DNA of 64,000 nucleotides from Bdellovibrionales bacterium. GTDB lineage: Bacteria > Bdellovibrionota > Bdellovibrionia > Bdellovibrionales > UBA1609. Positions 14,826-54,112 of this stretch are shown in pieces (within the stretch, counting starts at the first letter, position 1; each line of letters opens with the position of its first letter). The notes below the pieces were generated by a model, which saw only the letters and a list, made by a program, of their open reading frames with translations, was not told the origin of the DNA and did not search any database. The position numbers and the translations under genes are program-made. The stretch covers positions 96,001-160,000 of the forward strand of contig CBDHDF010000007.1 of assembly GCA_965261545.1 (NCBI GenBank), read 5' to 3'.

Positions 14826-15596
14826 TTAATTTTTTATCTTGACAAGTCGGTTTGAAGCTTCCTTCAATCGGTAGCTTTTTCCCTCAAATTTTAATAGTTG
14901 GCTGCAGTGGAGAAGGCGATCCAGGATGGCAGAGGCCACGGTATTATCGCCCAAACACTTTCCCCAGTCCTCAATAATGCGATTGGAGGTAATAAGAGTG
15001 CTTTTTCTCGCTGAGTATCGATCCAGAATGATTTCCTGGAAGTCATCGCAAGCCTCTGGCGGAATGCGCTTTCTAAGAAAAAGATCATCAATGATCAACA
15101 GGTCCACATGGATGAGTTGGGTGTAGAACCTCTTTCTGCGCCCCAGCTGCCTGGCCTCAAAGAGATTTTCAAAGAGCTTGTGAGCTTCCTGATACAAAAC
15201 CTTGTAATTTGATATGGAACAGACCTTGGTGGCTATAGCTTTTGCAATGTGGCTTTTTCCAGTTCCAGGGGAGCCAATAAGCAAGGCTCCCTCCCCCTGC
15301 TTGATGAACTTCAAGTTCATTAATTCCAAGATCATTGGCTTAGGTATTTTTGGGTTAAAATTCCAATCAAAGCCGGTGAGGGTGGACTCTTCCGTGAGCT
15401 TGGATGCTTTGAGGAGCCTCTCACATTTTTTGCTTTTCTTGAAGTCCTTTTCATCCTGTAAGAGCAATGAGAAGGTCTCTTGGAGGCTTTGTTGATTCTG
15501 TGTGTGTTGGTAGCTTCGAGCCTCAAATGTTTCAAACATGCCTATAAGCTTAAGGCTTTTGAGAGTCTCTTGTATTTCTGTGGGTGACATTGGCAT
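14826..15596 (-). CDS. istB: IS21 helper ATPase IstB
   Basis: FDWNFNP, Walker A GSPGTGKSH, LLIIDD, ITSN, AILDRLLH and GKSYRL motifs. Confidence 0.95.
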   Translation of the reverse strand: MPMSPTEIQETLKSLKLIGMFETFEARSYQHTQNQQSLQETFSLLLQDEKDFKKSKKCERLLKASKLTEESTLTGFDWNFNPKIPKPMILELMNLKFIKQGEGALLIGSPGTGKSHIAKAIATKVCSISNYKVLYQEAHKLFENLFEARQLGRRKRFYTQLIHVDLLIIDDLFLRKRIPPEACDDFQEIILDRYSARKSTLITSNRIIEDWGKCLGDNTVASAILDRLLHCSQLLKFEGKSYRLKEASNRLVKIKN

Positions 15597-15638
15597 TGTG
15601 ATTGCTCCTTTCCTCTAGAAGAGGGGTTGGGGGGTGGA

Positions 15639-17571
15639 TTAAGTAAGGTTGGTGCTAGGCTGAGGGTGTAAGGGTGAGTGGTGGATTTCGTTGTTGGCAT
15701 GTAAATTCCAGTAGATGGCATACTCTGATGGTGGTCGAATGATGTCGTGGTCTTGGGTGAGGTGGGATTCGATTTTTTTCTCATCCACAGGGGGCTGTAG
15801 TTCCTCAACAAGTCTTTTAAAGACCCTAAGAGATAAGACCCCTCTGCTCACAGCCTGAATGGCTGCTTTTTCAATAAGATCAGAGTGATATTTTTTAGCC
15901 AAGGACACCACCCCACGCATCTGCCTGTTTCCAACTCTCTCATCCACCCTGAGTAATGACTGACAAAAAGCTTTTGTTTGAGGGCCAATCTGACCCGCAT
16001 CAGCTAAAATATTTTCTACATGGCGAGATGGATTATAAACACGATCTTTGTCTAGCAAAGAGAGACTCCCCGGGAGAGTGGCTTTTTGGTGGCGGCGGAT
16101 AACACTCATCGTGGCAGGGTCCATAATCTCTATGTCTTTATCATAAATACGCACAATGACTTGGCTCTTTAGATCAGAAGGGTAGGCGCAATAGTAACTG
16201 TTTCCCACTTGAATGAGCCCATCGTCTGCAACTGTTCGTATCTCTTGTTTAAAAAAATCAAATTTCTTTTGGGGGAGCTTTTTGAGAAAGGGGCTCTCTT
16301 CTTCAAACATCTCAGAAACGACCCGCTTGGTGCGACCATGGACTCGAGGGCGAGCCCAAGTGTGCTCCCAGTGCATGAGCCACTCATTTTGCTCCTCAAT
16401 GGTTTTAAATGAACGACCCTTCAGTGCTGTGTCTTGGGTGTGGTGAATGGCGTGCTCAACGGTTCCTTTCCTATCAGGATCACGAACTCTTGCCGGGTCA
16501 GCAACGACCCCGTAGTGAGTCAGTACAGCGCCATAAACGGCGTTCAGCGTTGGCTCATAGATATCTGGCTTAATAACACCTTCCTTGAGATTGTCTAAGA
16601 CGACATATTGAGGGCAGCCCAAAAAATAATGAAAAGCCTCCTCATGGAGTCTGCTCCACGTCTCTTGGCTGGACTTCCAAACAACCTTGCGAAAAGAGGC
16701 ACGAGAGTACTTGAGGGTCATCACAAAAAGGCGAGGCCGCCTATATTTGCCTGTCCGGGGGTGAACAGTCAGAGCCCCTTGGCCATAATCCACTTGGGCT
16801 TCCTCTCCGGGGGGAAAATCCAAGCGATCATAGCGTTTGGGAGTACTCTTCTTCAGCTTCCTTACAAATTTTTTCACGCTGTCGTAGGAGTGAGAAAAAC
16901 CAAATTTCTCCACTAAATCTTGGTAGATGGCCATTCGATTGCGCTCTAAGTTCAAAGCCTGATTTTCAATCCAAGCCCTGTGGGGCTCACAAGCCGACTG
17001 ATGACATAAGGGGCGTTGAGAGGTTTTATCTTTAAGAGATTTTTTCAATCCAGGTGGTTCTATACAGTCCGTGGATCCAGTTTCTGTGGGAGCAGCCATC
17101 GGTTCCACCATGGTTGTGGATGGGCGCGTGAGGCAGGCGGAGGAGTGCATGGAAGCCCCATCAGACACGACAAGACATGCTGAGCCTGATCCTATAGGGG
17201 AAGATGGAGGCGTTTCTAAGGGGGGGGGTGGCTTCCCCTAGAAGAACCTGCTGATTGAATTCTGTGGAGGAGACCGAAACTTCCTTGGGCTTTTCGAACT
17301 GGGCCACAGGAAGGCTTGGAGGCTCCGCAGAGCAAATTTCAGGAGAACATGAAGATGAACATGACTCTGCTTCTGAGCACACCGAAAAGGCTGGAGATTT
17401 TGGCTCTATACCTCCTGTACGCCCCTTTTTGGCAATGACCCTATGGGCTTTCGCATACTCTGAAACCGTAGATCGACCTACATGTAGCCTTTTCGCTATT
17501 TTACGAAATGAGTGACCTGCTATAATTAATGTTAATATCTCTTCTTGTTTTTGTTTATTCAAGACGTTCAT
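15639..17571 (-). pseudogene. istA: IS21 transposase IstA, frameshifted in a C9 run (17220-17228)
   Basis: HTH lies in 17161..17571. PGEEAQVDYG, DNLKEGV and KGTVE core lies in 15639..17168. A C8 run would fuse the two. Confidence 0.85.
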
Positions 17572-18424
17572 CCTTCCCTCCCAGGTTGTTTTCTAGAAGG
17601 TATTTTACAATACGCCTTGTCAGATATTAAATTTTAAATGGCCTGGTTTGCCCGCCCACAAATGGCCTGGTTTGCCCTCCCCTCCGGGCATGGGCTGTGT
17701 CGATCTGTGATAAACGATCTCGACGCTGCTTATCTTCAGCTTCAAGTCGCTCTCGCATAAGTTCGTCTTGAGACAAATTCCACAAATTTTTGACGGCTCT
17801 TCCCATGTCCCTTCCTTTTTTGGCTAGCTCTTGGCTGGTTTGTTGATCCAACTCATCCGATCTCTTTAAGAAATAGCACCATGCTTCACGCTGGTCAACA
17901 AGGCTGTCTAATCTGCCAATGAACTTGTTCAATTCTACAATGACAAATTGCATACCATCGGTGAGCCTCAAATGAGGGTATCTATCCTGCCTCATGCTGC
18001 ATGTGTGGTAATAATCGTTGTCCTTGCGTAGCTCAGGAAGGTCCACAGTACTGAAAACAAGGGAATAAACAGTTCTTAATTTCTCGTATCTTTCTCCTTC
18101 TTTCACTTGATTGGAGTAGACCCGTCCAGCATAGGCAAGAAGGCGATTTGTGAAGTCTCTTTGAGAGACGGTTTGCATCTCCACATTAACAGTTTCATTT
18201 TCGACCCACTCCCCACTGGATAATTGTCGAGAAATGCGAAGCTTCATGTCCAAGATGAAGGTTTTTCCCGAAGGCTTGCTCGCCTCTGAAGAGTTTTCTT
18301 CGGTATCCAAAAGTTGAACATGTTCCACCCGACAACCGGGTGGCAAAGGAAGAAAATCCTGCAACAAAGGCTTGAGCAATTCCTGGTCATGCTTAAAAAA
18401 TGCTTTAAAAGTGTTATCAAGGGT

Positions 18425-19841
18425 CAATGCCGTTTCCTTAAGCCACCACACCCCTCTGCCTCTGCGTTAAGCTATTTCTTTTAAAAGAACTCCCAGCCCT
18501 TTTGATAGACCTTTCATAGCTTCTTTTGAAGTGCCTCCTCTTCTCCATTGAAATCTTCATCAGCAACTTTATCTGCTTCCTAAATTTCTGATAGAGCCCC
18601 GCAACAAAAAGGGGGATGCTATCCATTATGAAATCAAGAATCAGTTTAAAGTTAGGTTTTTTGTAGTCATTTTTTACCAACTGATTCACACTGTCTTCAT
18701 CCTCATTTATGCTCATTTGAATCTTTGTATAATTGAAGAGCCAAAAATAAGAATACAGCTCTTGCAATATTCCATTAAGGCTTGTTGAGTGCCACTGCTC
18801 CATTTTCATTGTCGATGTAAAATCACGAAATGTCGTTTCTATTTCCCAACGACGAGAGTAAAGAGCAACCATATCCTTCTTGTCCAAGGAGCCATGCGGA
18901 AGATTAGTGGCCAAAACAGAGAACTCCCCAGTCTTTGGGTTTTTATACTTATAGAGATGAATGACCACCCCCTCAATAACCATTTGTGAATACCAACCTG
19001 GGCCATTAAATAAATTTACGATGGGGATAAAAGTAGAGCCTCGCTTACAACGCGCAATAAAGAAGTTACTGGCTTGAGCATGGGCCTTAATAATCTCTGT
19101 AGATAAATAAAGCCTATCGTAGAGAGTTATGCTATTACTCTCAAAACTACCTATCATTTGAATAGCATTGGCGATTTCGTTGAGAGCGGGAGAATAGCAA
19201 AGATTCTTTGTCACACCCGATAAAACGTCATAAGCATGAGATAGATACATACGTAAGAAATGAGTTTCCATCTCATTTGGGCAAGGGTACCCACAATAAC
19301 CCTCCTTTAAAAGATCTTTAGAGCGAGGAAGTGCTAATTGGTCGCCATCTATGGCATAGATATAAAAGCCATGAAACGTTTTTCTCAATGGTTCGTAGTC
19401 TGTAATCAGAGATTCAAAGATATTTTTAAAAAATAGGTAAGAAATACTTTGACGTATCTTGCTGAGACTGCTTTTGACTGGCATGAGAAGCAGGTCACCA
19501 AAATGAGTCCATACCGTCTTAAGAGCGATTTGGTAGCCTTCGTAATTTGTTCCGGAAATAAGATAGATAATAGTAAAAAAGAAAATTTGAGGATTAAATT
19601 TTCGATTCCTTTTTTGTTTTTCTGGATCGACAAGGTGCTCTGGCTTGAAGGAAGAATCAAGTTTTGGTAGAATAAAATGGTCATCTGTGACGCGAACTCG
19701 TCATTTGGGGGCTTTCGAGATCAATATTGGATTGCATGTGACTTACTCCTTGGTTGAGGGTTGGGTGTAAAATAAAACAAGTCTTATTCTTGTCGATTTA
19801 TCTAATAATTTCAAGAGATTTTTCTTAAGGAAACGGCATTG
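18425..19841 (-). mobile_element. IS4-family element copy 1 (1417 bp); flanks do not match
   Basis: IR caatgccgtttccttaag at both ends. DDE motifs AIDG, YDRLY and Y-x2-RW-x-IE (YREK). Confidence 0.92.
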
Positions 19842-20373
19842 ACTCCAGACTATACCTGGAATTGACGAATTAAGTGCAGCGCTTTTGATTGCAGAAATAG
19901 GAGGCAATGTGAAGTCTTTTAAAAATAAAGGAAATTTTTGCTCCTGGATGGGGATTTGCCCATCCAATAATGAGAGCGCAGGAAAAAAAGTCTTCACGAA
20001 CGAGGAAAGCGAACACATATGTGAAATCGTTGGTATGTGAGATGGCCAATAGTGCTATTAAGACGAATTCACAATTCAAAGGCAAATACCAATCACTTGT
20101 TATAAGGCGTGGGCACAAGAGATCAGTGATTGCCGTTGGTCACAAAATGATGGGAGTTGTTTATTCAGTCATAAGTAATGACACCCCCTACAAAGACCCT
20201 GGAATTGACTATGAAAAGCTCATGGTGAAAAAAAATGCACCAAGGTGGATTAGAGCGTTAAAAAAGTATGATTTCATGTAATGTAGGATGATTTAAAAAC
20301 TCGGACATTTGAAAAAATTCGAAGAACGGATAGTGGATTCGTGCGTCCAAACTACCCCGGAGATTCATAGTAA
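19842..20373 (+). mobile_element. IS110 3' fragment, truncated by IS4 copy 1
   Basis: Matches the 3' third of the full copy at 20374-22078 (A7 allele). Confidence 0.9.
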
Positions 20374-22078
20374 CATTCATGGGGGCGCCTTGCTTCCCCA
20401 CCCACGCCCATGAATCTTATCTAGGCCCCCACTTCTTTGCACGAAGCAACTCGGTGGACAGCTTCGCTGGTCTATATAATTGGCCTCTTTTAGTTACTCT
20501 GGACTTTTGATTGTATTTTTGTCATGTATGATTCCGATACAATAAAGGATAAAGCAATAACATTATTGGAAGGTGATAAGATGAGTGGCCGTTGAATAGA
20601 TTGGTAATTTTAATTCCGTGAAGTAACATGGTCTTGAGCTTTGGATCGAACCCACGCATGTACCTGCACTCTGAGTGTATGGACGTATAGTAAGTTGACC
20701 TATTTTCGCTTTAGAATTTATGGCAAAATCCCAAGGCTCTAGTTTTATCACCTTCTTTTTTTCTAACAGAAAGGAGGAGTCATGTGGATATTATTTATAG
20801 TTCTGTTTGTGGAATAGATGTTCATCAACATATGTTGATGTGTACGATTGTCAAAGTGGAAGACGGTAAGAAGAAGTTTTTCACAAAAGAGTTCAAGAAT
20901 TTTCCAAAAAATTTTCCTAGAATGCGCTCTTGGATGAAGCCACATAAGGTTGAGAGAGTTCTTTTTGAGAGCACAGGGATTTATTGGAATTCTTTATACG
21001 ATGATTTGACAGAAAAAGGTTATGAAGTAGATGTTATCAATGCCTTTCATGTCAAAAATATTACTGGTAAAAAAACTGACGTGTTGGATAGCCAGTGGAT
21101 TGCAGAGCTTGGTGCTTGTGGTCTTCTAAGAGCTAGCTTCATTCCTCCACGTGAGATTCGTTCTATTAGACTTTTGGCTCGTTATCGTACAAAAACGATC
21201 CGCCAAATATCTTCGGAACAAAATCGTATGTATAAGGTTCTTGAATATTCAGGCATTCGTTTAACCTATGCAATGTCTAAAGCTGACTGCGTATCTGGTA
21301 TGGCCATGATTCGTGCCATAGCTAATGGAGAGAGATCAGTTTCTAAATTGATGTCTCTTGCCAGAGGGTCTTTACGTCAAAAGACCGAAGAATTTTCTTA
21401 CGCCCTGTCGGGAAAGATGACGGAAGAAAATCGTTTTGTTCTTCAACGCATTCTTGATCGAATAGATTTTTTGAAAAAAGAATGCTCTCAAATTGAAGAA
21501 GAACTTTTCATTCGTATGAAACCCTATGAAAGGCAGTGGCATCTACTCCAGACTATACCTGGAATTGACGAATTAAGTGCAGCGCTTTTGATTGCAGAAA
21601 TAGGAGGCAATGTGAAGTCTTTTAAAAATAAAGGAAATTTTTGCTCCTGGATGGGGATTTGCCCATCCAATAATGAGAGCGCAGGAAAAAAAAAGTCTTC
21701 ACGAACGAGGAAAGCGAACACATATGTGAAATCGTTGGTATGTGAGATGGCCAATAGTGCTATTAAGACGAATTCACAATTCAAAGGCAAATACCAATCA
21801 CTTGTTATAAGGCGTGGGCACAAGAGATCAGTGATTGCCGTTGGTCACAAAATGATGGGAGTTGTTTATTCAGTCATAAGTAATGACACCCCCTACAAAG
21901 ACCCTGGAATTGACTATGAAAAGCTCATGGTGAAAAAAAATGCACCAAGGTGGATTAGAGCGTTAAAAAAGTATGATTTCATGTAATGTAGGATGATTTA
22001 AAAACTCGGACATTTGAAAAAATTCGAAGAACGGATAGTGGATTCGTGCGTCCAAACTACCCCGGAGATTCATAGTAA
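20374..22078 (+). mobile_element. IS110-family element with intact recombinase 20784..21986
   Basis: DEDD RuvC-like motifs (GIDVH, FESTG, KTDVLD), TIPGI, AEIG and catalytic-Ser region NESAG. No terminal IR/TSD; AA core at the junctions. Confidence 0.95.
20568..20756 (+). ncRNA. Candidate IS110 bridge/seek RNA
   Basis: Lies in the non-coding left end. Closing stem gaaggtgataa/ttatcaccttc and inner stem cttgagctttggat/atcccaaggctctag. Contains atagtaa, identical to the element's right end. Confidence 0.6.
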
Positions 22079-25000
22079 CTATTCAGGGGGTGCTGCATTA
22101 ATTCGAACAATTTTTTTAAAAAAAGTATAAAAATTCTTGACAAGTTTTTGAAGCAAACGACCTCTTTCATTTGTTCTTTATCGAATATGTTCCTGCATAT
22201 GCCTTAAACTCTCTGAGAGCCATAGTATTGAAAGATTGTGAAACATAGGTCGCGGGGGGCACTTCTCATTCCTTTTGCTTCTTAGAACGAATCCTAGTGC
22301 ATTTTTTTTAATGAAAAAAAGGCATGTTAATATTTTCATAAGGTAAGTATGAAAATAGAAAATATTGACGTGTCTTCAGCCATAAATAAAATCAGGAAGC
22401 TTCTTAAGAAAGAGAAGTCCCTTTCTCCCGCTTTTATTGTGGCCATTGAGTTGTTGATCAAAATCATCACTATTCTAGTAAATCAAAAAAAATTAAATAG
22501 TCAAAACAGTAGTATTGCCCCTTCTCAAGATCCGAATGGCCCTAAAAAGAAACCTAAGGAAGAAACTGGTAAGAAGCCAGGAGGACAACCCGGACACGAA
22601 GGAGCTACTTTAAAACCCGTGGATACTCCAGACAAGGTGGAGTTCATTTCTATTAATAAAGAGGAACTTCCTCCAGGTGATTACATTTCTTCTGGAGTTG
22701 AAAAGCGTCAAGTATTTGAGGTAGACCTTTCTGTGCATGTCACGGAGTATCAAGGAGAAATCCTCGAAGACCAAGATGGGAATCAGTGGGTTGCAGGTTT
22801 TCCAGAAGGAATCAATAACCCAACTCAATATGGCCCTTCTGTGAAAGCTCACTCAGTTTATATGTCCCAGTTTCAGTTAATCCCTCATCTTCGAGTCGCA
22901 AGTTACTTTAATCAATGGGGTCTATCGCTTGCTGGATCTACGGTACACAATTTTAACAAATCTGCCTTTGAGGCTCTGGAAGCTTTTGAGGAGTGGGCAA
23001 AGGAAACTCTTCTGAACTCACCTTTGATTCATGCTGACGAAACTGGAGTGAATGTTAATGGGAAGAGGCTGTGGTTTCACCTCTTGTCCAATGATACTGT
23101 GGTTCTCTATCAGGTGGACGAAAAAAGAGGCGCAGAGGCTATGGATCGCATGGGAATTCTTCCAAAATACACAGGGATTGTTTGTCATGACCATTGGAAA
23201 CCTTATTATACATATACTTCCTGCATTCATGCCCTTTGCAATGCGCACCATTTAAGGGAGCTTCAAAGAGCTTGGGAGCAAGATGATCAAAAATGGGCAA
23301 AAGAAATGAAGTCTCTTTTAGAGACAATAAACAAAGAGGTGCACGATACGCAGAACCAATGCCTTTCACAAGACCGAATTGAATATTACAAAGAGAAATA
23401 TCGAAATATTCTCTTCGAAGGGGAAAAGGAATCTCCATTAATGGAGAGGACAGAGAAAAAAAAGAAGGGAAAGGTTAAACAATCCAAATCTAGAAATTTA
23501 CTAGATCGACTGAGAAACTTTGAAGATGATACCTTGCTATTTATGAAGGACCCCATAGTTCCATTTACGAATAATATAGCAGAAAATGATCTGAGAATGA
23601 CCAAAGTTCAGCAGAAAATATCTGGGTGCTTTCGTTCGTTGATGGGAGCCAAGACATTTTGTAGAAACCGAAGCTTTCTCCTGACTTGCCAGAAAAATGG
23701 CATAGAACCTAAAGATGCTCTAAATATGCTATTTCAAGGAAAACTTCCCTCATTTATGACTCGAATTCGCCCACCCCCTGAATCAATGCCGTTTCCTTAA
23801 GAAAAATCTCTTGAAATCATTAGATAAATCGACAAGAATAAGACTTGTTTTATTTTACACCCAACCCTCAACCAAGGAGTAAGTCACATGCAATCCAATA
23901 TTGATCTCGAAAGCCCCCAAATGACGAGTTCGCGTCACAGATGACCATTTTATTCTACCAAAACTTGATTCTTCCTTCAAGCCAGAGCACCTTGTCGATC
24001 CAGAAAAACAAAAAAGGAATCGAAAATTTAATCCTCAAATTTTCTTTTTTACCATTATCTATCTTATTTCCGGAACAAATTACGAAGGCTACCAAATCGC
24101 TCTTAAGACGGTATGGACTCATTTTGGTGACCTGCTTCTCATGCCAGTCAAAAGCAGTCTCAGCAAGATACGTCAAAGTATTTCTTACCTATTTTTCAAA
24201 GATATCTTTGAATCTCTGATTACAGACTACGAACCATTGAGAAAAACGTTTCATGGTTTTTATATCTATGCCATAGATGGCGACCAATTAGCACTTCCTC
24301 GCTCTAAAGATCTTTTAAAGGAGGGTTATTGTGGGTACCCTTGCCCAAATGAGATGGAAACTCATTTCTTACGTATGTATCTATCTCATGCTTATGACGT
24401 TTTATCGGGTGTGACAAAGAATCTTTGCTATTCTCCCGCTCTCAACGAAATCGCCAATGCTATTCAAATGATAGGTAGTTTTGAGAGTAATAGCATAACT
24501 CTCTACGATAGGCTTTATTTATCTACAGAGATTATTAAGGCCCATGCTCAAGCCAGTAACTTCTTTATTGCGCGTTGTAAGCGAGGCTCTACTTTTATCC
24601 CCATTGTAAATTTATTTAATGGCCCAGGTTGGTATTCACGAATGGTTATTGAGGGGGTGGTCATTCATCTCTATAAGTATAAAAACCCAAAGACTGGGGA
24701 GTTCTCTGTTTTGGCCACTAATCTTCCGCATGGCTCCTTGGACAAGAAGGATATGGTTGCTCTTTACTCTCGTCGTTGGGAAATAGAAACGACATTTCGT
24801 GATTTTACATCGACAATGAAAATGGAGCAGTGGCACTCAACAAGCCTTAATGGAATATTGCAAGAGCTGTATTCTTATTTTTGGCTCTTCAATTATACAA
24901 AGATTCAAATGAGCATAAATGAGGATGAAGACAGTGTGAATCAGTTGGTAAAAAATGACTACAAAAAACCTAACTTTAAACTGATTCTTGATTTCATAAT

Positions 25001-25216
25001 GGATAGCATCCCTCTTTTTGTTGCGGGGCTCTATCAGAAATTTAGGAAGCAGATAAAGTTGCTGATGAAGATTTCAATGGAGAAGAGGAGGCACTTCAAA
25101 AGAAGCTATGAAAGGTCTATCAAAAGGGCTGGGAGTTCTTTTAAAAGAAATAGCTTAACGCAGAGGCAGAGGGGTGTGGTGGCTTAAGGAAACGGCATTG
25201 CCCCCTGAATAGTTAC
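22075..25216 (+). mobile_element. IS66-family element (single-ORF type); transposase 22349..23800
   Basis: 18-bp IR gtaactattcagggggtg. Motifs NSSIAPS.D, GGQPGH.G, HADETG, CNAHHLREL and PFTNN.AE.DLR. The right IR is split by IS4, and its terminal ttac is displaced to 32200-32203 by the IS110 array. Confidence 0.9.
23784..25200 (+). mobile_element. IS4-family copy 2, inserted in the IS66 right IR
   Basis: 10-bp TSD ccccctgaat (23774-23783, 25201-25210). Confidence 0.95.
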
Positions 25217-28200
25217 TATGAATCTCCGGGGTAGTTTGGACGCACGAATCCACTATCCGTTCTTCGAATTTTTTCAAATGTCCGAGTTTTTAAATCATCC
25301 TACATTACATGAAATCATACTTTTTTAACGCTCTAATCCACCTTGGTGCATTTTTTTTCACCATGAGCTTTTCATAGTCAATTCCAGGGTCTTTGTAGGG
25401 GGTGTCATTACTTATGACTGAATAAACAACTCCCATCATTTTGTGACCAACGGCAATCACTGATCTCTTGTGCCCACGCCTTATAACAAGTGATTGGTAT
25501 TTGCCTTTGAATTGTGAATTCGTCTTAATAGCACTATTGGCCATCTCACATACCAACGATTTCACATATGTGTTCGCTTTCCTCGTTCGTGAAGACTTTT
25601 TTTCCTGCGCTCTCATTATTGGATGGGCAAATCCCCATCCAGGAGCAAAAATTTCCTTTATTTTTAAAAGACTTCACATTGCCTCCTATTTCTGCAATCA
25701 AAAGCGCTGCACTTAATTCGTCAATTCCAGGTATAGTCTGGAGTAGATGCCACTGCCTTTCATAGGGTTTCATACGAATGAAAAGTTCTTCTTCAATTTG
25801 AGAGCATTCTTTTTTCAAAAAATCTATTCGATCAAGAATGCGTTGAAGAACAAAACGATTTTCTTCCGTCATCTTTCCCGACAGGGCGTAAGAAAATTCT
25901 TCGGTCTTTTGACGTAAAGACCCTCTGGCAAGAGACATCAATTTAGAAACTGATCTCTCTCCATTAGCTATGGCACGAATCATGGCCATACCAGATACGC
26001 AGTCAGCTTTAGACATTGCATAGGTTAAACGAATGCCTGAATATTCAAGAACCTTATACATACGATTTTGTTCCGAAGATATTTGGCGGATCGTTTTTGT
26101 ACGATAACGAGCCAAAAGTCTAATAGAACGAATCTCACGTGGAGGAATGAAGCTAGCTCTTAGAAGACCACAAGCACCAAGCTCTGCAATCCACTGGCTA
26201 TCCAACACGTCAGTTTTTTTACCAGTAATATTTTTGACATGAAAGGCATTGATAACATCTACTTCATAACCTTTTTCTGTCAAATCATCGTATAAAGAAT
26301 TCCAATAAATCCCTGTGCTCTCAAAAAGAACTCTCTCAACCTTATGTGGCTTCATCCAAGAGCGCATTCTAGGAAAATTTTTTGGAAAATTCTTGAACTC
26401 TTTTGTGAAAAACTTCTTCTTACCGTCTTCCACTTTGACAATCGTACACATCAACATATGTTGATGAACATCTATTCCACAAACAGAACTATAAATAATA
26501 TCCACATGACTCCTCCTTTCTGTTAGAAAAAAAGAAGGTGATAAAACTAGAGCCTTGGGATTTTGCCATAAATTCTAAAGCGAAAATAGGTCAACTTACT
26601 ATACGTCCATACACTCAGAGTGCAGGTACATGCGTGGGTTCGATCCAAAGCTCAAGACCATGTTACTTCACGGAATTAAAATTACCAATCTATTCAACGG
26701 CCACTCATCTTATCACCTTCCAATAATGTTATTGCTTTATCCTTTATTGTATCGGAATCATACATGACAAAAATACCATCAAAAGTCCAGAGTAACTAAA
26801 AGAGGCCAATTATATAGACCAGCGAAGCTGTCCACCGAGTTGCTTCGTGCAAAGAAGTGGGGGCCTAGAAAGATTCATGGGCGTGGGTGGGGAAGCAAGG
26901 CGCCCCCATGAATGTTACTATGAATCTCCGGGGTAGTTACTATGAATCTCCGGGGTAGTTTGGACGCACGAATCCACTATCCGTTCTTCGAATTTTTTCA
27001 AATGTCCGAGTTTTTAAATCATCCTACATTACATGAAATCATACTTTTTTAACGCTCTAATCCACCTTGGTGCATTTTTTTTCACCATGAGCTTTTCATA
27101 GTCAATTCCAGGGTCTTTGTAGGGGGTGTCATTACTTATGACTGAATAAACAACTCCCATCATTTTGTGACCAACGGCAATCACTGATCTCTTGTGCCCA
27201 CGCCTTATAACAAGTGATTGGTATTTGCCTTTGAATTGTGAATTCGTCTTAATAGCACTATTGGCCATCTCACATACCAACGATTTCACATATGTGTTCG
27301 CTTTCCTCGTTCGTGAAGACTTTTTTTCCTGCGCTCTCATTATTGGATGGGCAAATCCCCATCCAGGAGCAAAAATTTCCTTTATTTTTAAAAGACTTCA
27401 CATTGCCTCCTATTTCTGCAATCAAAAGCGCTGCACTTAATTCGTCAATTCCAGGTATAGTCTGGAGTAGATGCCACTGCCTTTCATAGGGTTTCATACG
27501 AATGAAAAGTTCTTCTTCAATTTGAGAGCATTCTTTTTTCAAAAAATCTATTCGATCAAGAATGCGTTGAAGAACAAAACGATTTTCTTCCGTCATCTTT
27601 CCCGACAGGGCGTAAGAAAATTCTTCGGTCTTTTGACGTAAAGACCCTCTGGCAAGAGACATCAATTTAGAAACTGATCTCTCTCCATTAGCTATGGCAC
27701 GAATCATGGCCATACCAGATACGCAGTCAGCTTTAGACATTGCATAGGTTAAACGAATGCCTGAATATTCAAGAACCTTATACATACGATTTTGTTCCGA
27801 AGATATTTGGCGGATCGTTTTTGTACGATAACGAGCCAAAAGTCTAATAGAACGAATCTCACGTGGAGGAATGAAGCTAGCTCTTAGAAGACCACAAGCA
27901 CCAAGCTCTGCAATCCACTGGCTATCCAACACGTCAGTTTTTTTACCAGTAATATTTTTGACATGAAAGGCATTGATAACATCTACTTCATAACCTTTTT
28001 CTGTCAAATCATCGTATAAAGAATTCCAATAAATCCCTGTGCTCTCAAAAAGAACTCTCTCAACCTTATGTGGCTTCATCCAAGAGCGCATTCTAGGAAA
28101 ATTTTTTGGAAAATTCTTGAACTCTTTTGTGAAAAACTTCTTCTTACCGTCTTCCACTTTGACAATCGTACACATCAACATATGTTGATGAACATCTATT

Positions 28201-31200
28201 CCACAAACAGAACTATAAATAATATCCACATGACTCCTCCTTTCTGTTAGAAAAAAAGAAGGTGATAAAACTAGAGCCTTGGGATTTTGCCATAAATTCT
28301 AAAGCGAAAATAGGTCAACTTACTATACGTCCATACACTCAGAGTGCAGGTACATGCGTGGGTTCGATCCAAAGCTCAAGACCATGTTACTTCACGGAAT
28401 TAAAATTACCAATCTATTCAACGGCCACTCATCTTATCACCTTCCAATAATGTTATTGCTTTATCCTTTATTGTATCGGAATCATACATGACAAAAATAC
28501 CATCAAAAGTCCAGAGTAACTAAAAGAGGCCAATTATATAGACCAGCGAAGCTGTCCACCGAGTTGCTTCGTGCAAAGAAGTGGGGGCCTAGAAAGATTC
28601 ATGGGCGTGGGTGGGGAAGCAAGGCGCCCCCATGAATGTTACTATGAATCTCCGGGGTAGTTTGGACGCACGAATCCACTATCCGTTCTTCGAATTTTTT
28701 CAAATGTCCGAGTTTTTAAATCATCCTACATTACATGAAATCATACTTTTTTAACGCTCTAATCCACCTTGGTGCATTTTTTTTCACCATGAGCTTACTA
28801 TGAATCTCCGGGGTAGTTTGGACGCACGAATCCACTATCCGTTCTTCGAATTTTTTCAAATGTCCGAGTTTTTAAATCATCCTACATTACATGAAATCAT
28901 ACTTTTTTAACGCTCTAATCCACCTTGGTGCATTTTTTTTCACCATGAGCTTTTCATAGTCAATTCCAGGGTCTTTGTAGGGGGTGTCATTACTTATGAC
29001 TGAATAAACAACTCCCATCATTTTGTGACCAACGGCAATCACTGATCTCTTGTGCCCACGCCTTATAACAAGTGATTGGTATTTGCCTTTGAATTGTGAA
29101 TTCGTCTTAATAGCACTATTGGCCATCTCACATACCAACGATTTCACATATGTGTTCGCTTTCCTCGTTCGTGAAGACTTTTTTTCCTGCGCTCTCATTA
29201 TTGGATGGGCAAATCCCCATCCAGGAGCAAAAATTTCCTTTATTTTTAAAAGACTTCACATTGCCTCCTATTTCTGCAATCAAAAGCGCTGCACTTAATT
29301 CGTCAATTCCAGGTATAGTCTGGAGTAGATGCCACTGCCTTTCATAGGGTTTCATACGAATGAAAAGTTCTTCTTCAATTTGAGAGCATTCTTTTTTCAA
29401 AAAATCTATTCGATCAAGAATGCGTTGAAGAACAAAACGATTTTCTTCCGTCATCTTTCCCGACAGGGCGTAAGAAAATTCTTCGGTCTTTTGACGTAAA
29501 GACCCTCTGGCAAGAGACATCAATTTAGAAACTGATCTCTCTCCATTAGCTATGGCACGAATCATGGCCATACCAGATACGCAGTCAGCTTTAGACATTG
29601 CATAGGTTAAACGAATGCCTGAATATTCAAGAACCTTATACATACGATTTTGTTCCGAAGATATTTGGCGGATCGTTTTTGTACGATAACGAGCCAAAAG
29701 TCTAATAGAACGAATCTCACGTGGAGGAATGAAGCTAGCTCTTAGAAGACCACAAGCACCAAGCTCTGCAATCCACTGGCTATCCAACACGTCAGTTTTT
29801 TTACCAGTAATATTTTTGACATGAAAGGCATTGATAACATCTACTTCATAACCTTTTTCTGTCAAATCATCGTATAAAGAATTCCAATAAATCCCTGTGC
29901 TCTCAAAAAGAACTCTCTCAACCTTATGTGGCTTCATCCAAGAGCGCATTCTAGGAAAATTTTTTGGAAAATTCTTGAACTCTTTTGTGAAAAACTTCTT
30001 CTTACCGTCTTCCACTTTGACAATCGTACACATCAACATATGTTGATGAACATCTATTCCACAAACAGAACTATAAATAATATCCACATGACTCCTCCTT
30101 TCTGTTAGAAAAAAAGAAGGTGATAAAACTAGAGCCTTGGGATTTTGCCATAAATTCTAAAGCGAAAATAGGTCAACTTACTATACGTCCATACACTCAG
30201 AGTGCAGGTACATGCGTGGGTTCGATCCAAAGCTCAAGACCATGTTACTTCACGGAATTAAAATTACCAATCTATTCAACGGCCACTCATCTTATCACCT
30301 TCCAATAATGTTATTGCTTTATCCTTTATTGTATCGGAATCATACATGACAAAAATACCATCAAAAGTCCAGAGTAACTAAAAGAGGCCAATTATATAGA
30401 CCAGCGAAGCTGTCCACCGAGTTGCTTCGTGCAAAGAAGTGGGGGCCTAGAAAGATTCATGGGCGTGGGTGGGGAAGCAAGGCGCCCCCATGAATGTTAC
30501 TATGAATCTCCGGGGTAGTTTGGACGCACGAATCCACTATCCGTTCTTCGAATTTTTTCAAATGTCCGAGTTTTTAAATCATCCTACATTACATGAAATC
30601 ATACTTTTTTAACGCTCTAATCCACCTTGGTGCATTTTTTTTCACCATGAGCTTTTCATAGTCAATTCCAGGGTCTTTGTAGGGGGTGTCATTACTTATG
30701 ACTGAATAAACAACTCCCATCATTTTGTGACCAACGGCAATCACTGATCTCTTGTGCCCACGCCTTATAACAAGTGATTGGTATTTGCCTTTGAATTGTG
30801 AATTCGTCTTAATAGCACTATTGGCCATCTCACATACCAACGATTTCACATATGTGTTCGCTTTCCTCGTTCGTGAAGACTTTTTTTCCTGCGCTCTCAT
30901 TATTGGATGGGCAAATCCCCATCCAGGAGCAAAAATTTCCTTTATTTTTAAAAGACTTCACATTGCCTCCTATTTCTGCAATCAAAAGCGCTGCACTTAA
31001 TTCGTCAATTCCAGGTATAGTCTGGAGTAGATGCCACTGCCTTTCATAGGGTTTCATACGAATGAAAAGTTCTTCTTCAATTTGAGAGCATTCTTTTTTC
31101 AAAAAATCTATTCGATCAAGAATGCGTTGAAGAACAAAACGATTTTCTTCCGTCATCTTTCCCGACAGGGCGTAAGAAAATTCTTCGGTCTTTTGACGTA

Positions 31201-32199
31201 AAGACCCTCTGGCAAGAGACATCAATTTAGAAACTGATCTCTCTCCATTAGCTATGGCACGAATCATGGCCATACCAGATACGCAGTCAGCTTTAGACAT
31301 TGCATAGGTTAAACGAATGCCTGAATATTCAAGAACCTTATACATACGATTTTGTTCCGAAGATATTTGGCGGATCGTTTTTGTACGATAACGAGCCAAA
31401 AGTCTAATAGAACGAATCTCACGTGGAGGAATGAAGCTAGCTCTTAGAAGACCACAAGCACCAAGCTCTGCAATCCACTGGCTATCCAACACGTCAGTTT
31501 TTTTACCAGTAATATTTTTGACATGAAAGGCATTGATAACATCTACTTCATAACCTTTTTCTGTCAAATCATCGTATAAAGAATTCCAATAAATCCCTGT
31601 GCTCTCAAAAAGAACTCTCTCAACCTTATGTGGCTTCATCCAAGAGCGCATTCTAGGAAAATTTTTTGGAAAATTCTTGAACTCTTTTGTGAAAAACTTC
31701 TTCTTACCGTCTTCCACTTTGACAATCGTACACATCAACATATGTTGATGAACATCTATTCCACAAACAGAACTATAAATAATATCCACATGACTCCTCC
31801 TTTCTGTTAGAAAAAAAGAAGGTGATAAAACTAGAGCCTTGGGATTTTGCCATAAATTCTAAAGCGAAAATAGGTCAACTTACTATACGTCCATACACTC
31901 AGAGTGCAGGTACATGCGTGGGTTCGATCCAAAGCTCAAGACCATGTTACTTCACGGAATTAAAATTACCAATCTATTCAACGGCCACTCATCTTATCAC
32001 CTTCCAATAATGTTATTGCTTTATCCTTTATTGTATCGGAATCATACATGACAAAAATACCATCAAAAGTCCAGAGTAACTAAAAGAGGCCAATTATATA
32101 GACCAGCGAAGCTGTCCACCGAGTTGCTTCGTGCAAAGAAGTGGGGGCCTAGATAAGATTCATGGGCGTGGGTGGGGAAGCAAGGCGCCCCCATGAATG
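25213..32199 (-). mobile_element. Tandem array of four IS110 copies (25213-26914, 26937-28638, 28795-30496, 30497-32199) with 22-bp and 156-bp right-end fragments between them
   Basis: 1702/1703-bp units, each with the recombinase split into 319-aa and 103-aa ORFs by an A7 allele. Junctions read catagtAAcattc. Confidence 0.93.
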
Positions 32200-32203
32200 T
32201 TAC

Positions 32204-32890
32204 CATTTGAATAGCATTGGCGATTTCGTTGAGAGCGGGAGAATAGCAAAGATTCTTTGTCACACCCGATAAAACGTCATAAGCATGAGATAGATACATA
32301 CGTAAGAAATGAGTTTCCATCTCATTTGGGCAAGGGTACCCACAATAACCCTCCTTTAAAAGATCTTTAGAGCGAGGAAGTGCTAATTGGTCGCCATCTA
32401 TGGCATAGATATAAAAGCCATGAAACGTTTTTCTCAATGGTTCGTAGTCTGTAATCAGAGATTCAAAGATATTTTTAAAAAATAGGTAAGAAATACTTTG
32501 ACGTATCTTGCTGAGACTGCTTTTGACTGGCATGAGAAGCAGGTCACCAAAATGAGTCCATACCGTCTTAAGAGCGATTTGGTAGCCTTCGTAATTTGTT
32601 CCGGAAATAAGATAGATAATAGTAAAAAAGAAAATTTGAGGATTAAATTTTCGATTCCTTTTTTGTTTTTTTGGATCGACAAGGTGCTCTGGCTTGAAGG
32701 AAGAATCAAGTTTTGGTAGAATAAAATGGTCATCTGTGACGCGAACTCGTCATTTGGGGGCTTTCGAGATCAATATTGGATTGCATGTGACTTACTCCTT
32801 GGTTGAGGGTTGGGTGTAAAATAAAACAAGTCTTATTCTTGTCGATTTATCTAATAATTTCAAGAGATTTTTCTTAAGGAAACGGCATTG
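32204..32890 (-). mobile_element. IS4-family copy 3, 5' half only (cut at an IS66 terminus)
   Basis: IS4 sequence stops at ...attcaaatg, followed by gtaac. IR intact at 32873-32890. Confidence 0.9.
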
Positions 32891-32899
32891 AGTCAGGGG

Positions 32900-35800
32900 T
32901 CATTGAGGAATACATTTGATTATGCATGCCATTTCCCGGGGAAGCTCTAACGCGAGATAGGACGATTTTGTAACACCAAGGGCCTTGCATGTTGATATAT
33001 CAGTGGCAGAAGGTACCCGAGTGCTGCTTTCACCAATGCCTTTGGCCGCTTTGAAGCTGTGCCATGAGGAGGATCGGTTGTAGGAGCACTTTGCCCCCCC
33101 AGGATAAGTCTTTGAGGGATCTTAAGACTAATGAATAGCTAAGAGGATAGGTTAAGGAAGCTCCCTTGTTGACGTATTCAAAACCGCTAGCCTCAACTAA
33201 TAGTGCTTTTGGTGGGCACATAACCGTTATCCCATAATTGTCTTTTGTGCAACCTGCTGCTGATGAATGGCCGAGCCTGTAAACTATTTTGTGTAACTGC
33301 CGAATCATATTAGGATGAACTATCATCCTGAAAGGAGAAGGCAAAATGGATATCAAGACAATAGGCAAGGAACTAGCGAAGAACGTCAAGACCCAAAAGG
33401 ATTTATCCGACATAACGGGTCAACTGATGAAGGTTGTTTTAGAGACAGCTCTTAATGCGGAAATGGACGATCACCTAGGTTATGAGAGGCATGAGAAGTC
33501 TGAGACCCGCAAATCCAACACTCGCAATGGTTACAGTAGAAAGACCATAAAGGGAGAGAAAGGCGAGGTGGAGCTTCAGGTCCCCCGTGACCGAAGTGCC
33601 TCCTTTGAGCCCCAAGTCATTCCCAAAGGCAAGACTCGTCTTGAGGGCTTTGAAGACAGTATTCTGACCCTCTATGCGAGGGGAATGACGACCAGGGATA
33701 TTCAAGGAGCTATCAAAGACCTCTACCATGGTGCAGAGATATCCCACTCAGTGATAGCCAACGTGACGGATGCTGTTATTGATGAAGTTACGGCTTGGCA
33801 GAACCGCCCCTTGGATAGCACTTACCCTATCGTATTTTTGGACTGTATCGTGGTGAAGGTCCATCAAGACAAGAGAGTTATTAATAAGGCGATTTACCTA
33901 GCTCTTGGTATTACAGAGGAGGGTCAGAAAGACTTGTTGGGCCTATGGATTTCTGAAAATGAGGGTTCAAAGTTTTGGTTGAGTGTTTTGACTGAGCTGC
34001 AAAATCGAGGGTTGAAAGACGTATTTATATTTTCTGTAGATGGTCTTACAGGTTTTCCTCAAGCCATTTCAGCGGCTTTTCCCAAGTCTAAAGTACAACT
34101 GTGCATTGTCCATATGGTCCGCAATTCCCTTCGCTATGTTCCTTCCAAGGATATGAAAGCTGTCGCCCAAGACCTCAAGTCCATTTATGGCTCTACGACT
34201 CTGACAGAAGCTGAAAAGGCCCTTGAGGAATTTTGTACCAAGTGGTCTTCAAAGTATCCGAATATTGAAAAGTCTTGGCGTAGGAATTGGGACAATCTCA
34301 TCACTATTTTCGATTATCCGGATGAAATCAGAAAGATTTTTTATACCACAAACGCCATAGAGTCGTTAAATAGCGTGATCCGCAAGGCGATCAGAAATCG
34401 TAAGATATTTCCCAGTGATCGGTCGGCTTTAAAAGTTGTATATTTAGCGATAAAAATGGCCTCTAAGCGATGGACACGACCATTACACAACTGGAAGCCA
34501 GCCATGAACAGGTTTGCCATTGAATACGGTGACCGTTTTGACAACTAAGTTTTTTAATAAGGTCCACCACCTGCCTTATAAGGGGGCTTAAAAGCCCCTC
34601 TAAGGCGTTGACAGAAGTACTGGAATACCGAGACTATGGTTAGGGTAATATAGTATGGGAACCTAAATACATGCCCTCTTGGTGCAGATTTGGGTTCCCA
34701 TTTTTTTTCATATTTCATCCCAATTCTGGTATTTCTCGAATATCCTAAGTTAAAAAAAATAAAAAAAAGGGGGTAATATAGTATGGGAACCTAAACACAT
34801 GAACCCTTTGATGAGATTGGAATTTCCATTTTTTTGAGAGAGCCATTGCTGATTTTTTTTCAACCAAGATGATAATTATTTATTTGAGTTCTTTCCAGTT
34901 CTGATATGATCCCATTACGGCTCCATAATACAATCAAAAGTCCAGAGTAACTAAAGAGGCCAATTATATAGACCAGCGAAGATGTCCACCTCCCCATTAA
35001 CTTATAATGCATTGTGACTGACAAAATCGCTTGAAGGAAAAAATGTCAATTATACATTGACGAATAATATGGGACTGTGCTTTTTACCAGGAGTGGAGCC
35101 ACATAAGTGGCTTTAAGATTTAAGAAAAAAATTGCAGTTACACAATTATTTTTACAGTCCCGAATGGCCATGCTCGCCAGCACATATAAACTCCCGTCTT
35201 GCACATTGTCTAGCATAATTTAGGTTCTTTAATCTCGGATTATGATAGTGGTACACTCCTTTGAGTTGATTGTCCGTATAAAGTTTGTATTTGTAAATAG
35301 CATTGCCTGATGGTGTTGTGTTAGCTGCTGCCACAGTGACTCCACAATGACTTATCGGCCTTGCTTCGGAGTGCCGCTGGCGGTATCAACGGAAAGAAAA
35401 AGATCAACGATCGCTGGCCTTATCTGTCTTGTGGGTGAATTAAAATCAATGGTGAGTTCTGCTTTATATTCACCAGCAGTTGTCGTCTTTACAATGTTTC
35501 TTGCCATGATTGATTTTGTGGTAAGTTGTGCTGTATTTCTAATGGGTGTATTCGCCGCCACAATGATATTGTCAGTTCCTGTAAAGTCACAACTTGTGCG
35601 AAAACTTCCTATGTTGATATCTTTAATCGGCTGATTTAATCTTGTGTCGATAGTGAAGGGACCCAAGTTGGAACCGACAGGAGTTGTTTGTTTGAAATGA
35701 CAATCACAGGTGTCGGGGTTTTGTATAGTTTGCAGAACAAATTGTTTTATATTGGCACGCACGAGTTGTTGTTTGATAGATTGAAGTTCTCTATGCTGAA

Positions 35801-52571: not shown

Positions 52572-54112
52572 GTAACTGCTCGCACCTTACATAGGAATTT
52601 CTCCCTTGAGAGCCATATTGATGGCCTCTAAGGAAGAGAACCCCTTGTTTCTCATAGTCTTGACATAACTGGTAATCCGACAAAAGTGCTTTGCCATTTT
52701 TGCTGTCCTGAAGCAACCTGATACTTTCTTTTTCACCTTATTCATTCTCAAGTCTCGCTCGGCTCTGTTGTTGGTTGGGTCCACCTCTTTCACTTTGGCA
52801 AAGAGAAGGATTTCTGCTTCATATTTTTTAAAGCGGAGCCAAAGATTTTGAGCATCTGTATGTTTCACTCGTCCTTTTTTACCATTCTTCTCTGGAAAGG
52901 GAGGAAGCTCCTTTAAAGCCCTTGTGAGAATATTCCTATACCTCCTCTGAAGAGTTTGATACTCCTTTCGAGTCAATATCTTAGATTTTCTTTTTTGGAC
53001 CAATTCAACAGCTTCCTGAAGAAGTTTTTTCAGATTGGTGGCCCATTTCGAACCAGAGCTATCCTCCACAAATTTCAATTCCCTAAGAAGATGGGCAACG
53101 CACAGAGCATGAAGCATATCTGTATAAGAAAAATAGGGACTCCAACAGTCATGTACCAAGATACCTCCATACCTGTCCAATATGCCAATATCTTTGATGG
53201 CATCTTTTCCACGGGAAGGATGGATGAACTGCAATGTAAGATCACCACAGCTATAAGTATGAATCCAGTAGTTCTTCTTATTGACTCTCATGGAGGTTTC
53301 GTCAACATGAATGACCACAGACTCAAGGATTTGTTGTTTTGCCCATTGTTCCCACTCTTGAAGAGATTCGCTCAGTTGAGAAATATACTTCAACATGGTT
53401 GAGGGTGAGATAAAGCGGCCAACGAGACCCTTGTAGTGTTCACCAACACGCTGGAGAGACATCATTTGAATGACAATAAAATTAATAATTGAGGCCCTAA
53501 TTCCAATACCATATTGGATCGGTCCATCTATGCCCTCTGGGAATGGGCCTTTGTTTTCTGTACCACATTCATGGCACTCTTTGATTTCAGAGGTGACAGT
53601 GTGGGTGTTTATCTCATAGAGAATATCAATTTTTTTACGCTCTTCGGAGCCTTTCATCTCAGTTTCCTTCAAATCGGCCCCACATTTAGAGCAATTTGAT
53701 GGAGACACTGTTTCCTTGCTCTCTGTGTCCTTACTGTTATCGAGCCTTGATCCTTTCTTGCTGTCTTCCTCAGCCCCTTCCTTATTACGGTTCCCATTGC
53801 TACCAGAGTTCTGAGAAGGGGGCAGCCCACTATTGCTGGAGTTTTTACGAGTCTTTTTTTCCAAAAATAAAGTCACTACAACTGTGAGAATGGTCAGCAT
53901 GGACTGAATAAATAGTTTAGTCTCTCGTGGGATACTCTTGTCAGAAAGAATCTTCTTAGATTCCTTCTGGAGGTTTTCAATTTCGCTTCGTAAGGATTGT
54001 TTTCTTGTATTCACGAAAGAATTATTAAATGGGGAGGCTTGAGAATCAATACTTTAGTATAAAAATGGTCTTTAGGCTAAAAGTCTGGTGTAGAAGGGGT
54101 GCGAGCAGTTAC
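52572..54112 (-). mobile_element. Second, distinct IS66-family element; transposase 52587..54014
   Basis: IR gtaactgctcgcacc and an 8-bp TSD ctgcttta. Motifs NSSNSGLPPS, HVDET, CVAHLLREL and TNNRAERDLR. Confidence 0.93.

Follow-up and report, generated by a model that had tools for sequence, protein, structure and literature searches.

An IS110 element at both tips of an IS66 element

The window analysed here is a stretch of 64,000 nucleotides (C7 96001-160000; C-numbers denote contigs of the same Bdellovibrionales genome, G000, GenBank assembly GCA_965261545.1) in which an IS110-family element is joined, at the same nucleotide, to both terminal repeats of an IS66-family element. The genome comprises 4.3 Mb in 11 contigs and is rich in insertion sequences (IS); three of them are involved here, namely the IS110 element (recombinase of 400 amino acids, aa), an IS66 element with a single open reading frame (ORF; 483 aa) and an IS4 element (348 aa) that has 83 near-full copies genome-wide. 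An IS66 end that carries an IS110 is called capped below. The features of the locus are as follows, in window coordinates unless a contig is named.

18425..19841, minus strand: IS4-family copy within a second IS110 copy; inversion breakpoint
19842..20371, plus strand: 3' part of that second IS110 copy, interrupted by IS4; its 5' part and the IS66 left tip are at C7 81.5-87 kb
20372..20373, plus strand: AA core of a tandem right-end/left-end IS110 junction
20374..22076, plus strand: intact IS110-family element capping the IS66 left repeat (~410-nt non-coding left end, 400-aa recombinase, ~90-nt right end)
20784..21986, plus strand: IS110 DEDD recombinase ORF, 400 aa (Pfam PF01548 and PF02371, NF033542, alignments)
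22077..22078, plus strand: AA core, IS110 right end joined to IS66 left repeat
22079..23783, plus strand: body of the single-ORF IS66 (ORF 22349-23800, 483 aa)
23784..25200, plus strand: IS4-family element splitting the IS66 right repeat (10-bp duplication CCCCCTGAAT at 23774-83 and 25201-10)
25213..25214, minus strand: AA core, IS110 right end joined to IS66 right repeat
25215..32199, minus strand: tandem array of IS110 copies (full copies 25215-26914, 26939-28638, 28797-30496 and 30499-32199)
26917-26936 and 28641-28794: partial right-end duplications inside the array
32200..32203, minus strand: displaced IS66 tip (GT plus AA core) at an IS110 left end
32204..32211, plus strand: 8-bp IS66 target duplication CATTTGAA within an IS4 copy; its partner adjoins the left tip at C7 87044
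52572..54112, minus strand: second IS66, unoccupied, an internal control (ends GTAACTGCTCGCAC, 8-bp duplication CTGCTTTA)

A preliminary description of the window, made from its letters, had reported the IS110 right end fused at the AA of both IS66 repeats, and direct reading of the two junctions (22077-78 and 25213-14) agrees. At the left, positions 22075-22091 read GTAACTATTCAGGGGGT directly 3' of the IS110 right end ...GATTCATA, with the core AA at 22077-78; at the right, positions 25200-25216 mirror this junction, with the core TT at 25213-14. The fusion point is thus the AA of GTAACTATTCAG at both IS66 ends, in mirror orientation. The displaced IS66 terminus described at 32200-32203 is also present, as TTAC followed by CATTTGAA, which is IS4 sequence, and GTAA is absent from the corresponding position of the uninterrupted IS4 at 19152. 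The other IS66 (52572-54112) is free at both ends, as had been stated.

The host IS66 scores above the NF033517 cut-off, is about 1715 bp long and has a single DDE ORF, GTAA-type repeats and an 8-bp target duplication, which is exact in four free copies. It is thus a member of the ISBst12 group of IS66, described in PMC12898284 as having a single ORF, repeats starting GTAAC and an 8-bp duplication, with no difference seen; the host repeat is GTAACTATTCAGGGGG. The stop codon of its ORF is inside the right repeat, and ORF and stop are untouched by IS110 insertion. In the window the right repeat is additionally split by IS4, with the 10-bp duplication listed above, and the ORF runs five codons into IS4 because its TAG sits in the split repeat.

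The four full IS110 copies to the right of the IS66 are all frameshifted (an A run in the recombinase gene is two bases shorter, at 7 A, and the protein is truncated), and the two partial right-end duplications in the array are fused at unrelated AA sites (26937-38 and 28795-96). The left outer IS66 tip is outside the window, at C7 87044, where the 8-mer CATTTGAA recurs at an IS110 left end beside the other half of the IS66-invaded IS4; after an inversion between IS4 copies the two duplication partners are 41 kb apart. For the IS110 truncated at 19842-20371, the 5' remainder is found at C7 81.5-87 kb, adjoining another IS4 with the matching 10-bp duplication. From these positions we infer that IS66 entered IS4 with an 8-bp duplication, IS110 then entered both IS66 tips, further insertions followed, and an IS4-IS4 inversion came last.

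Other rearrangements of these elements were seen. Three IS110 copies (C1 12699, C7 115835 and C7 349058) are broken at one position (~1164-1180), and in the window copy IS4 was read at the break. At C7 226-233 kb and C7 311-315 kb IS110 copies are duplicated with a stretch of upstream flank, their right ends on a poor target, a one-ended tandem expansion. IS66 target duplications elsewhere also have distant partners (C7 263190 and 311418, 48 kb apart in the same orientation; C7 228466 and C11 10453, on another contig); these are IS-mediated rearrangements. Finally, IS4 has repeatedly entered IS66-type repeats directly behind their G run (window 23784; C6 289762, C11 896705, C2 593662, C6 99217 and C7 165145). 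These sites suit the 10-bp target bias of IS4 (a C-rich part followed by a G-rich one), and IS66 tips are therefore a shared hot spot.

Junctions and occupancy across the genome

Collection of the flanks of all IS110 copies, which had been proposed as a check on targeting, gave 37 right-end junctions, and the AA core is present in 37/37. Fifteen lie on the repeat of this IS66 (7 left repeats, 7 right repeats and 1 remnant), 10 on the IS110's own left end, 6 inside an IS110 element and 6 elsewhere; 12/37 are on neither the IS66 repeat nor the IS110 left end. Three of the six elsewhere are within two mismatches of CTATTCA (one of these three being an IS66 tip broken after 7 bases by another element), and two are duplicates of one event. 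The 40 IS110 left ends are preceded by GTAAC in 37 cases and by TTAAC in two, so TAAC is found in 39/40.

Occupancy of this IS66 (15/33 ends) is sharply different from that of the second IS66 (0/21; Fisher p=1.3e-4) and from that of all other scored GTAAC-type ends (0/51; p=7e-8). Ends that carry CTATTCAGGG with GTAT replacing GTAA are occupied in 0/13 cases (p=0.004, or p=0.018 when counted on their 8 distinct flanks). When sites with GTAAC are sorted by mismatches to the following CTATTCA, 16/36 are occupied at no mismatch, 1/35 at one, 1/200 at two and 2/726 at three. Three exact 11-mers occur outside IS66, and because one of them is occupied, it is the sequence and not IS66 identity that decides. 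The proposal that IS110 targets this IS66's repeat is strongly supported. Most repeats being empty had been named as an outcome that would speak against targeting; empty ends are indeed a narrow majority (18/33 free, 55%), and targeting survives this since the control ends show zero occupancy.

Among the 66 outer ends examined, exact 8-bp duplications are preserved at nine capped loci, six in place and three with the partner moved elsewhere. Four further 8-bp pairs, each with one mismatch and with its partners on separate contigs, were taken to be coincidental. The few IS66 and IS110 variants are differently combined among capped copies, which argues for repeated independent hits.

The recombinase and its predicted bridge RNA

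The IS110 recombinase contains PF01548 and PF02371, scores 245 bits with NF033542 (cut-off 140), and has the DEDD RuvC-like domain and the transposase domain with catalytic serine of the family; D12, E62, D99, D102 and S299 align with the catalytic residues of IS621, a full set. The element has no terminal repeats or target duplication and has a short core at both junctions, as IS110-family members do. It belongs to the IS110 group rather than IS1111, since its non-coding left end is ~410 nt long versus ~90 nt for the right end, and the non-coding region is upstream of the gene, not downstream; in place of IS1111-like sub-terminal repeats of 11-13 bp near both ends there is only a 9-bp right-end motif whose partner is ~40 nt inside the left end. 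The A run of the gene (window 21686-21694 and equivalent sites) has 9 A, in frame, in 14 copies, 7 A in 18 and 8 A in 3, and homologues P0005, P0006 and P0015 shift frame at the same place; frameshifted copies appear to have spread in trans. A 65-bp block of the left end (20453-20517), which contains TATAAT, is 97% shared with 34927-34990, where an IS256-type element with ~65 copies has its 3' non-coding end. A promoter scan gave 4 sites versus 6.2 expected and no sigma-70-like site at the right-left junction; right-left junctions are present as tandems.

Among 160 fetched homologue loci, those of 40-48% identity share with the ~410-nt left end a common scaffold, in the order GGUC stem, variable loop, hairpin, second variable segment ending in AA, GACC stem, and a later segment matching the right end. 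A fold of the alignment predicts an internal loop whose closing helix is 97.8% paired, with 5 double changes across 23 sequences (relatedness of the sequences inflates the control); the left end folded alone gave z -1.35, which is uninformative. The predicted parts are as follows.

20586..20721, plus strand: predicted bridge RNA core (target-binding loop, with the donor guide 3' of it)
26568-26703, 28292-28427, 30150-30285 and 31852-31987, minus strand: identical copies of this core
20593..20599, plus strand: predicted right target guide UGAAUAG, exact complement of IS66 repeat bases 5-11 (CTATTCA)
20620..20627, plus strand: predicted left target guide GAAGUAAC, within which GUAAC matches IS66 repeat bases 1-5
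20686..20694, plus strand: predicted left donor guide UAUAGUAAG, matching the IS110's own right end CATAGTAA

Together the target guides UGAAUAG and GUAAC cover the opening 11 bases of the IS66 repeat, GT-AA-CTATTCA, and the left end thus has what is expected of a region encoding a bridge RNA, with a putative target loop complementary to both target strands. Covariation was scored in homologues only, this element being excluded, at the columns that UGAAUAG and GAAGU occupy here; 48 loci of >39.5% identity gave 40 that passed filters and 29 distinct RNAs (n=19 for the left flank and n=22 for the right). The left guide matches the left flank at 64.7 positions versus 31.3+/-4.1 in permuted pairs (0/20000 permutations, p<5e-5), and the right guide matches the complement of the right flank at 60.3 versus 43.5+/-5.4 (p=0.0013). 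In loci outside this test, judged by eye, the left guide agrees at 4/5, 4/5, 5/5 and 3/5 positions and the right guide at 5/7 in one, with a poor right-guide match in L095. The left donor guide tracks the right-end sequence across homologues, also by eye; a right donor guide was not located in the left-end RNA. The repeat of the second IS66 departs from the right guide at three of its seven positions, which explains why that IS66 is spared.

We therefore read the element, with a probability of roughly 85%, as an IS110-group bridge recombinase that its left-end RNA would program against the first 11 bases (GT-AA-CTATTCA) of one IS66's repeat, a reading drawn from sequence comparison. UGAAUAG as right guide would pair with CTATTCA on the top strand, and GUAAC as left guide with the bottom strand opposite GTAAC; a circular IS110 would then recombine at the shared AA core and land two bases inside the IS66 tip, pointing into IS66, so that GT-AA and the 8-bp duplication of IS66 would stay outside it. 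Expression of the RNA, the circle and the chemistry of recombination are presumed in this scheme. Both IS66 ends would be hit in mirror orientation because both carry the same 11-mer, and specificity would come almost wholly from the long right guide, since the flank left of the IS66 tip varies. Tandem copies and partial duplications would represent the usual local expansion of the family, perhaps helped where the IS110 left end acts as a near-target, and haplotypes differ between several tandem neighbours. A paper (10.64898/2026.08.14.744561) reports that tandem copies are common and describes left-donor-only duplications, which the partial right-end duplications here fit.

Several findings weigh against this reading. 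Specificity is not absolute, given the 12/37 junctions off both the IS66 repeat and the IS110 left end, and most of the six inside an IS110 element have a poor guide match; two of the three exact 11-mers outside IS66 are empty. Right-guide covariation is moderate, is also significant when shifted by +1 (p=0.0002; five other shifts are not) and is poor in homologues L021, L031, L172 and L179, and relatedness inflates both covariation tests. Opposite the core, just 3' of the right guide, the RNA has A instead of the expected U, one mismatch, and the outer three left-guide bases show no flank bias (0.53 versus 0.50 matches). UGAAUAG arises by chance anywhere in the 411-nt left end in 3.4% of resamples, and the guide argument therefore rests on the slot that it occupies. 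Close homologues (65-80% identity) were found as proteins only; none with flanks was found among 61 relatives and 384 genomes of the order (best 32-36%), in 400 further genomes from the phylum (threshold E<=1e-90) or in a plasmid search (at most 41%).

A pattern search of 189 non-self loci found no right end on an IS66-type repeat, and no IS66-type right guide occurs among the bridge-model hits. IS66 genes are near an IS110 homologue at two non-self loci (L004 and L119); at L004 the IS110 is divergent and no junction with IS66 was seen on reading. A scan of genome contigs with a single protein gave 12 stretches, none of which was confirmed, and was repeated with an alignment. At L030 (Endozoicomonas) an empty IS66-type miniature element (MITE) with ends GTAACTATTCAGCACCCC is ~450-690 bases upstream of an IS110 gene whose guides read a different target.

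It had been proposed that targeting may work through donor mimicry, the IS66 repeat being taken as a second donor in donor-donor recombination. The resemblance is real, as the IS110 junction GTAACATTCATGGGGG and the repeat GTAACTATTCAGGGGG agree at 13/20 positions, 10/37 right-end junctions are on the IS110's own left end, and IS621 makes rare donor-like insertions (PMC11208160). It is not needed, however: a separate exact guide for CTATTCA occupies a slot that covaries with targets, and the donor guide, which matches the element's own right end, requires CATAGT left of the core, where the IS66 flanks are unrelated 8-mers. Furthermore, the left-end start AA(A)CA.TCATG also occurs in homologues with unrelated targets and is a trait of the clade, and tandem junctions occur in homologues with other targets too (L040 and L102) and in the paper above. 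We consider mimicry improbable.

Host ends, mobility and related systems

The capped loci could also descend from a few original insertions that multiplied as a composite of IS110 and IS66, whose new GTAAC...GGGGG end would be accepted by the IS66 transposase. Exact 8-bp duplications are seen in three of the four short elements bounded on both sides by left-end-type termini, IS66-type ends converted to left-end sequence exist, and at capped loci 8-bp duplications lie beyond the IS110 left end, the last being expected under either order of events. Against this, capped loci differ in IS66 and IS110 haplotypes; right-capped IS66 of one haplotype (C10 189588 and C11 865295) bear different IS110 variants. 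The 14 IS66 elements with both ends traceable have 0, 1 and 2 caps in 5, 5 and 4 cases versus 4.0, 7.0 and 3.0 expected (p=0.29, a hand tally), which fits independent hits, and the short elements are accounted for as scars of deletion between direct repeats of 9-12 bp. No capped composite was found duplicated, by haplotype, at a second locus, a comparison of low power with only three shared IS66 variants. Composite movement leaves the guide match unexplained, and we regard it as slightly less probable even than mimicry.

Assembly artefact or gene conversion among repeats, conceivable in a very IS-rich long-read genome whose copies are >99% identical with mixed haplotypes, is very improbable, as the junctions are on five contigs with unique flanks and matching 8-bp duplications and depth in the contigs of a sequencing run (108 for IS110, 55 for IS66) is near the assembled copy ratio, although the run is probably of the source sample and so not independent. 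A contig from a second study reaches 13 bases past the core into the repeat, fewer than the 31 required, and was not counted as support.

That capping probably immobilises IS66 is no more than a suggestion: 18/33 ends are free, the ORF is spared and caps appear to fall as independent hits. Left-end-type termini with 8-bp duplications are compatible with composite mobility. The new outer end of a capped IS66 matches the repeat at 13/20 positions, with GTAAC and the G run in register, and it is a tentative and rather unlikely idea that IS110 rebuilds rather than disables the host end, flank-GTAAC-(6 nt)-GGGGG serving as a usable IS66-type terminus for a hitch-hiking parasite. If so, the IS66 transposase would carry IS110-capped composites and 44-51-bp left-end palindromes, loss of IS110 by deletion would leave a converted, working repeat, and an RNA-guided parasite with reversed guide order and nearly one-sided targeting would be riding another IS.

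Such palindromes, GTAAC...GTTAC from the IS110 left-end tip, are present at C2 618569-618619, C6 99928-99978, C10 204619-204662 and C2 273894-273941, three of these four having exact 8-bp duplications, with seven further degenerate copies at C2 345-384 kb; they may be scars of doubly capped elements or IS66-mobilised MITEs, and are most simply deletion scars. IS66-type ends in which the repeat is replaced by the IS110 left-end tip, joined directly to IS66 or MITE interior, occur at C2 284804, C2 343-377 kb and C2 856131. There is also a 106-bp non-coding mini-element made of the IS110's two ends and an internal palindrome (C6 3544-3650, C3 20865-20972, C2 233515-233621, C2 289135-289236, C10 576451-576557 and C11 725851-725958), copies of which are on other IS66-type repeats (GTAACTGCTCAG) or on an IS110 left end; between mini-element and full element, the right-end motif and the inner repeat of the left end covary, and a similar mini-element is upstream of the homologue in L102.

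The habit itself is known. IS4321 and IS5075, DEDD recombinase elements, are described as occupying one fixed position in the repeats of Tn21-type transposons, a self-propagating safe harbour (PMC8269217, PMC11187229), and this IS110 likewise enters another transposon's terminal repeats at one fixed position. It differs from them in that they are of the IS1111 group with the non-coding region downstream rather than upstream, and in that its host is an IS66 and not of the Tn3 family, with insertion two bases inside the tip and almost no fixed sequence left of the core. Its long left end with a predicted bridge RNA, two-base core at both junctions, DEDD and serine residues and internal target loop of stem, guide, hairpin and guide resemble IS621 as described in PMC11208160 and PMC11208158. 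Unlike IS621, it has the core AA (CT in IS621), 400 aa (326 aa; the similarity is distant, E 2.7e-15), a 7-nt right guide, two fixed bases left of the core, and an IS end rather than a REP as target. In IS621 the left guide (50-58) precedes the right (77-80; PMC11208158) and the right guide takes in both core bases, whereas here the right target guide is 5' of the left, with the one mismatch opposite the core.

According to PMC11187229, ISEc21 is also an IS110-group element with an upstream non-coding RNA and a target in another IS family; it enters the coding region of an IS3 transposase, whereas the present element spares the IS66 ORF, and its top-strand match is 3' of the bottom-strand match, whereas here it is 5', as in IS1111 seekRNAs. 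ISPpu9 with MITEPpu9/ssr9 is similar, by description only, in having a left end with an internal inverted repeat and short non-autonomous modules that share both ends, single or in tandem with the full element; it targets REP with an AG core (PMC12288879). The literature searched gave no IS110 that targets IS66, the name IS66 being absent from the three texts searched for it, though figures, supplements, ISfinder notes and most subscription papers may hold one, and no reversed guide order in an IS110 bridge RNA, though figures and supplements (for example Fig. 6d of PMC11208160) may hold a case. In short, a habit known from IS4321/IS5075 at Tn21 ends is seen here with a new target and an unusual layout of the guides: the element would extend IS110 targets to IS66 tips, its predicted bridge RNA with two fixed bases left of the core and reversed guides bears on recombinase programmability, and its genome, with 33 target, 21 near-target and 13 core-changed ends, is a natural test case of RNA-guided IS-on-IS targeting in a member of a widespread 400-aa clade with an AA core.

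Elsewhere in the window, positions 14826-17571 hold an IS21-type element (IstB by NCBIfam and an integrase-core ORF) whose ends bear 22-bp internal repeats; it is adjoined by an Rpn-family gene (17627-18451) that is cut by IS4.

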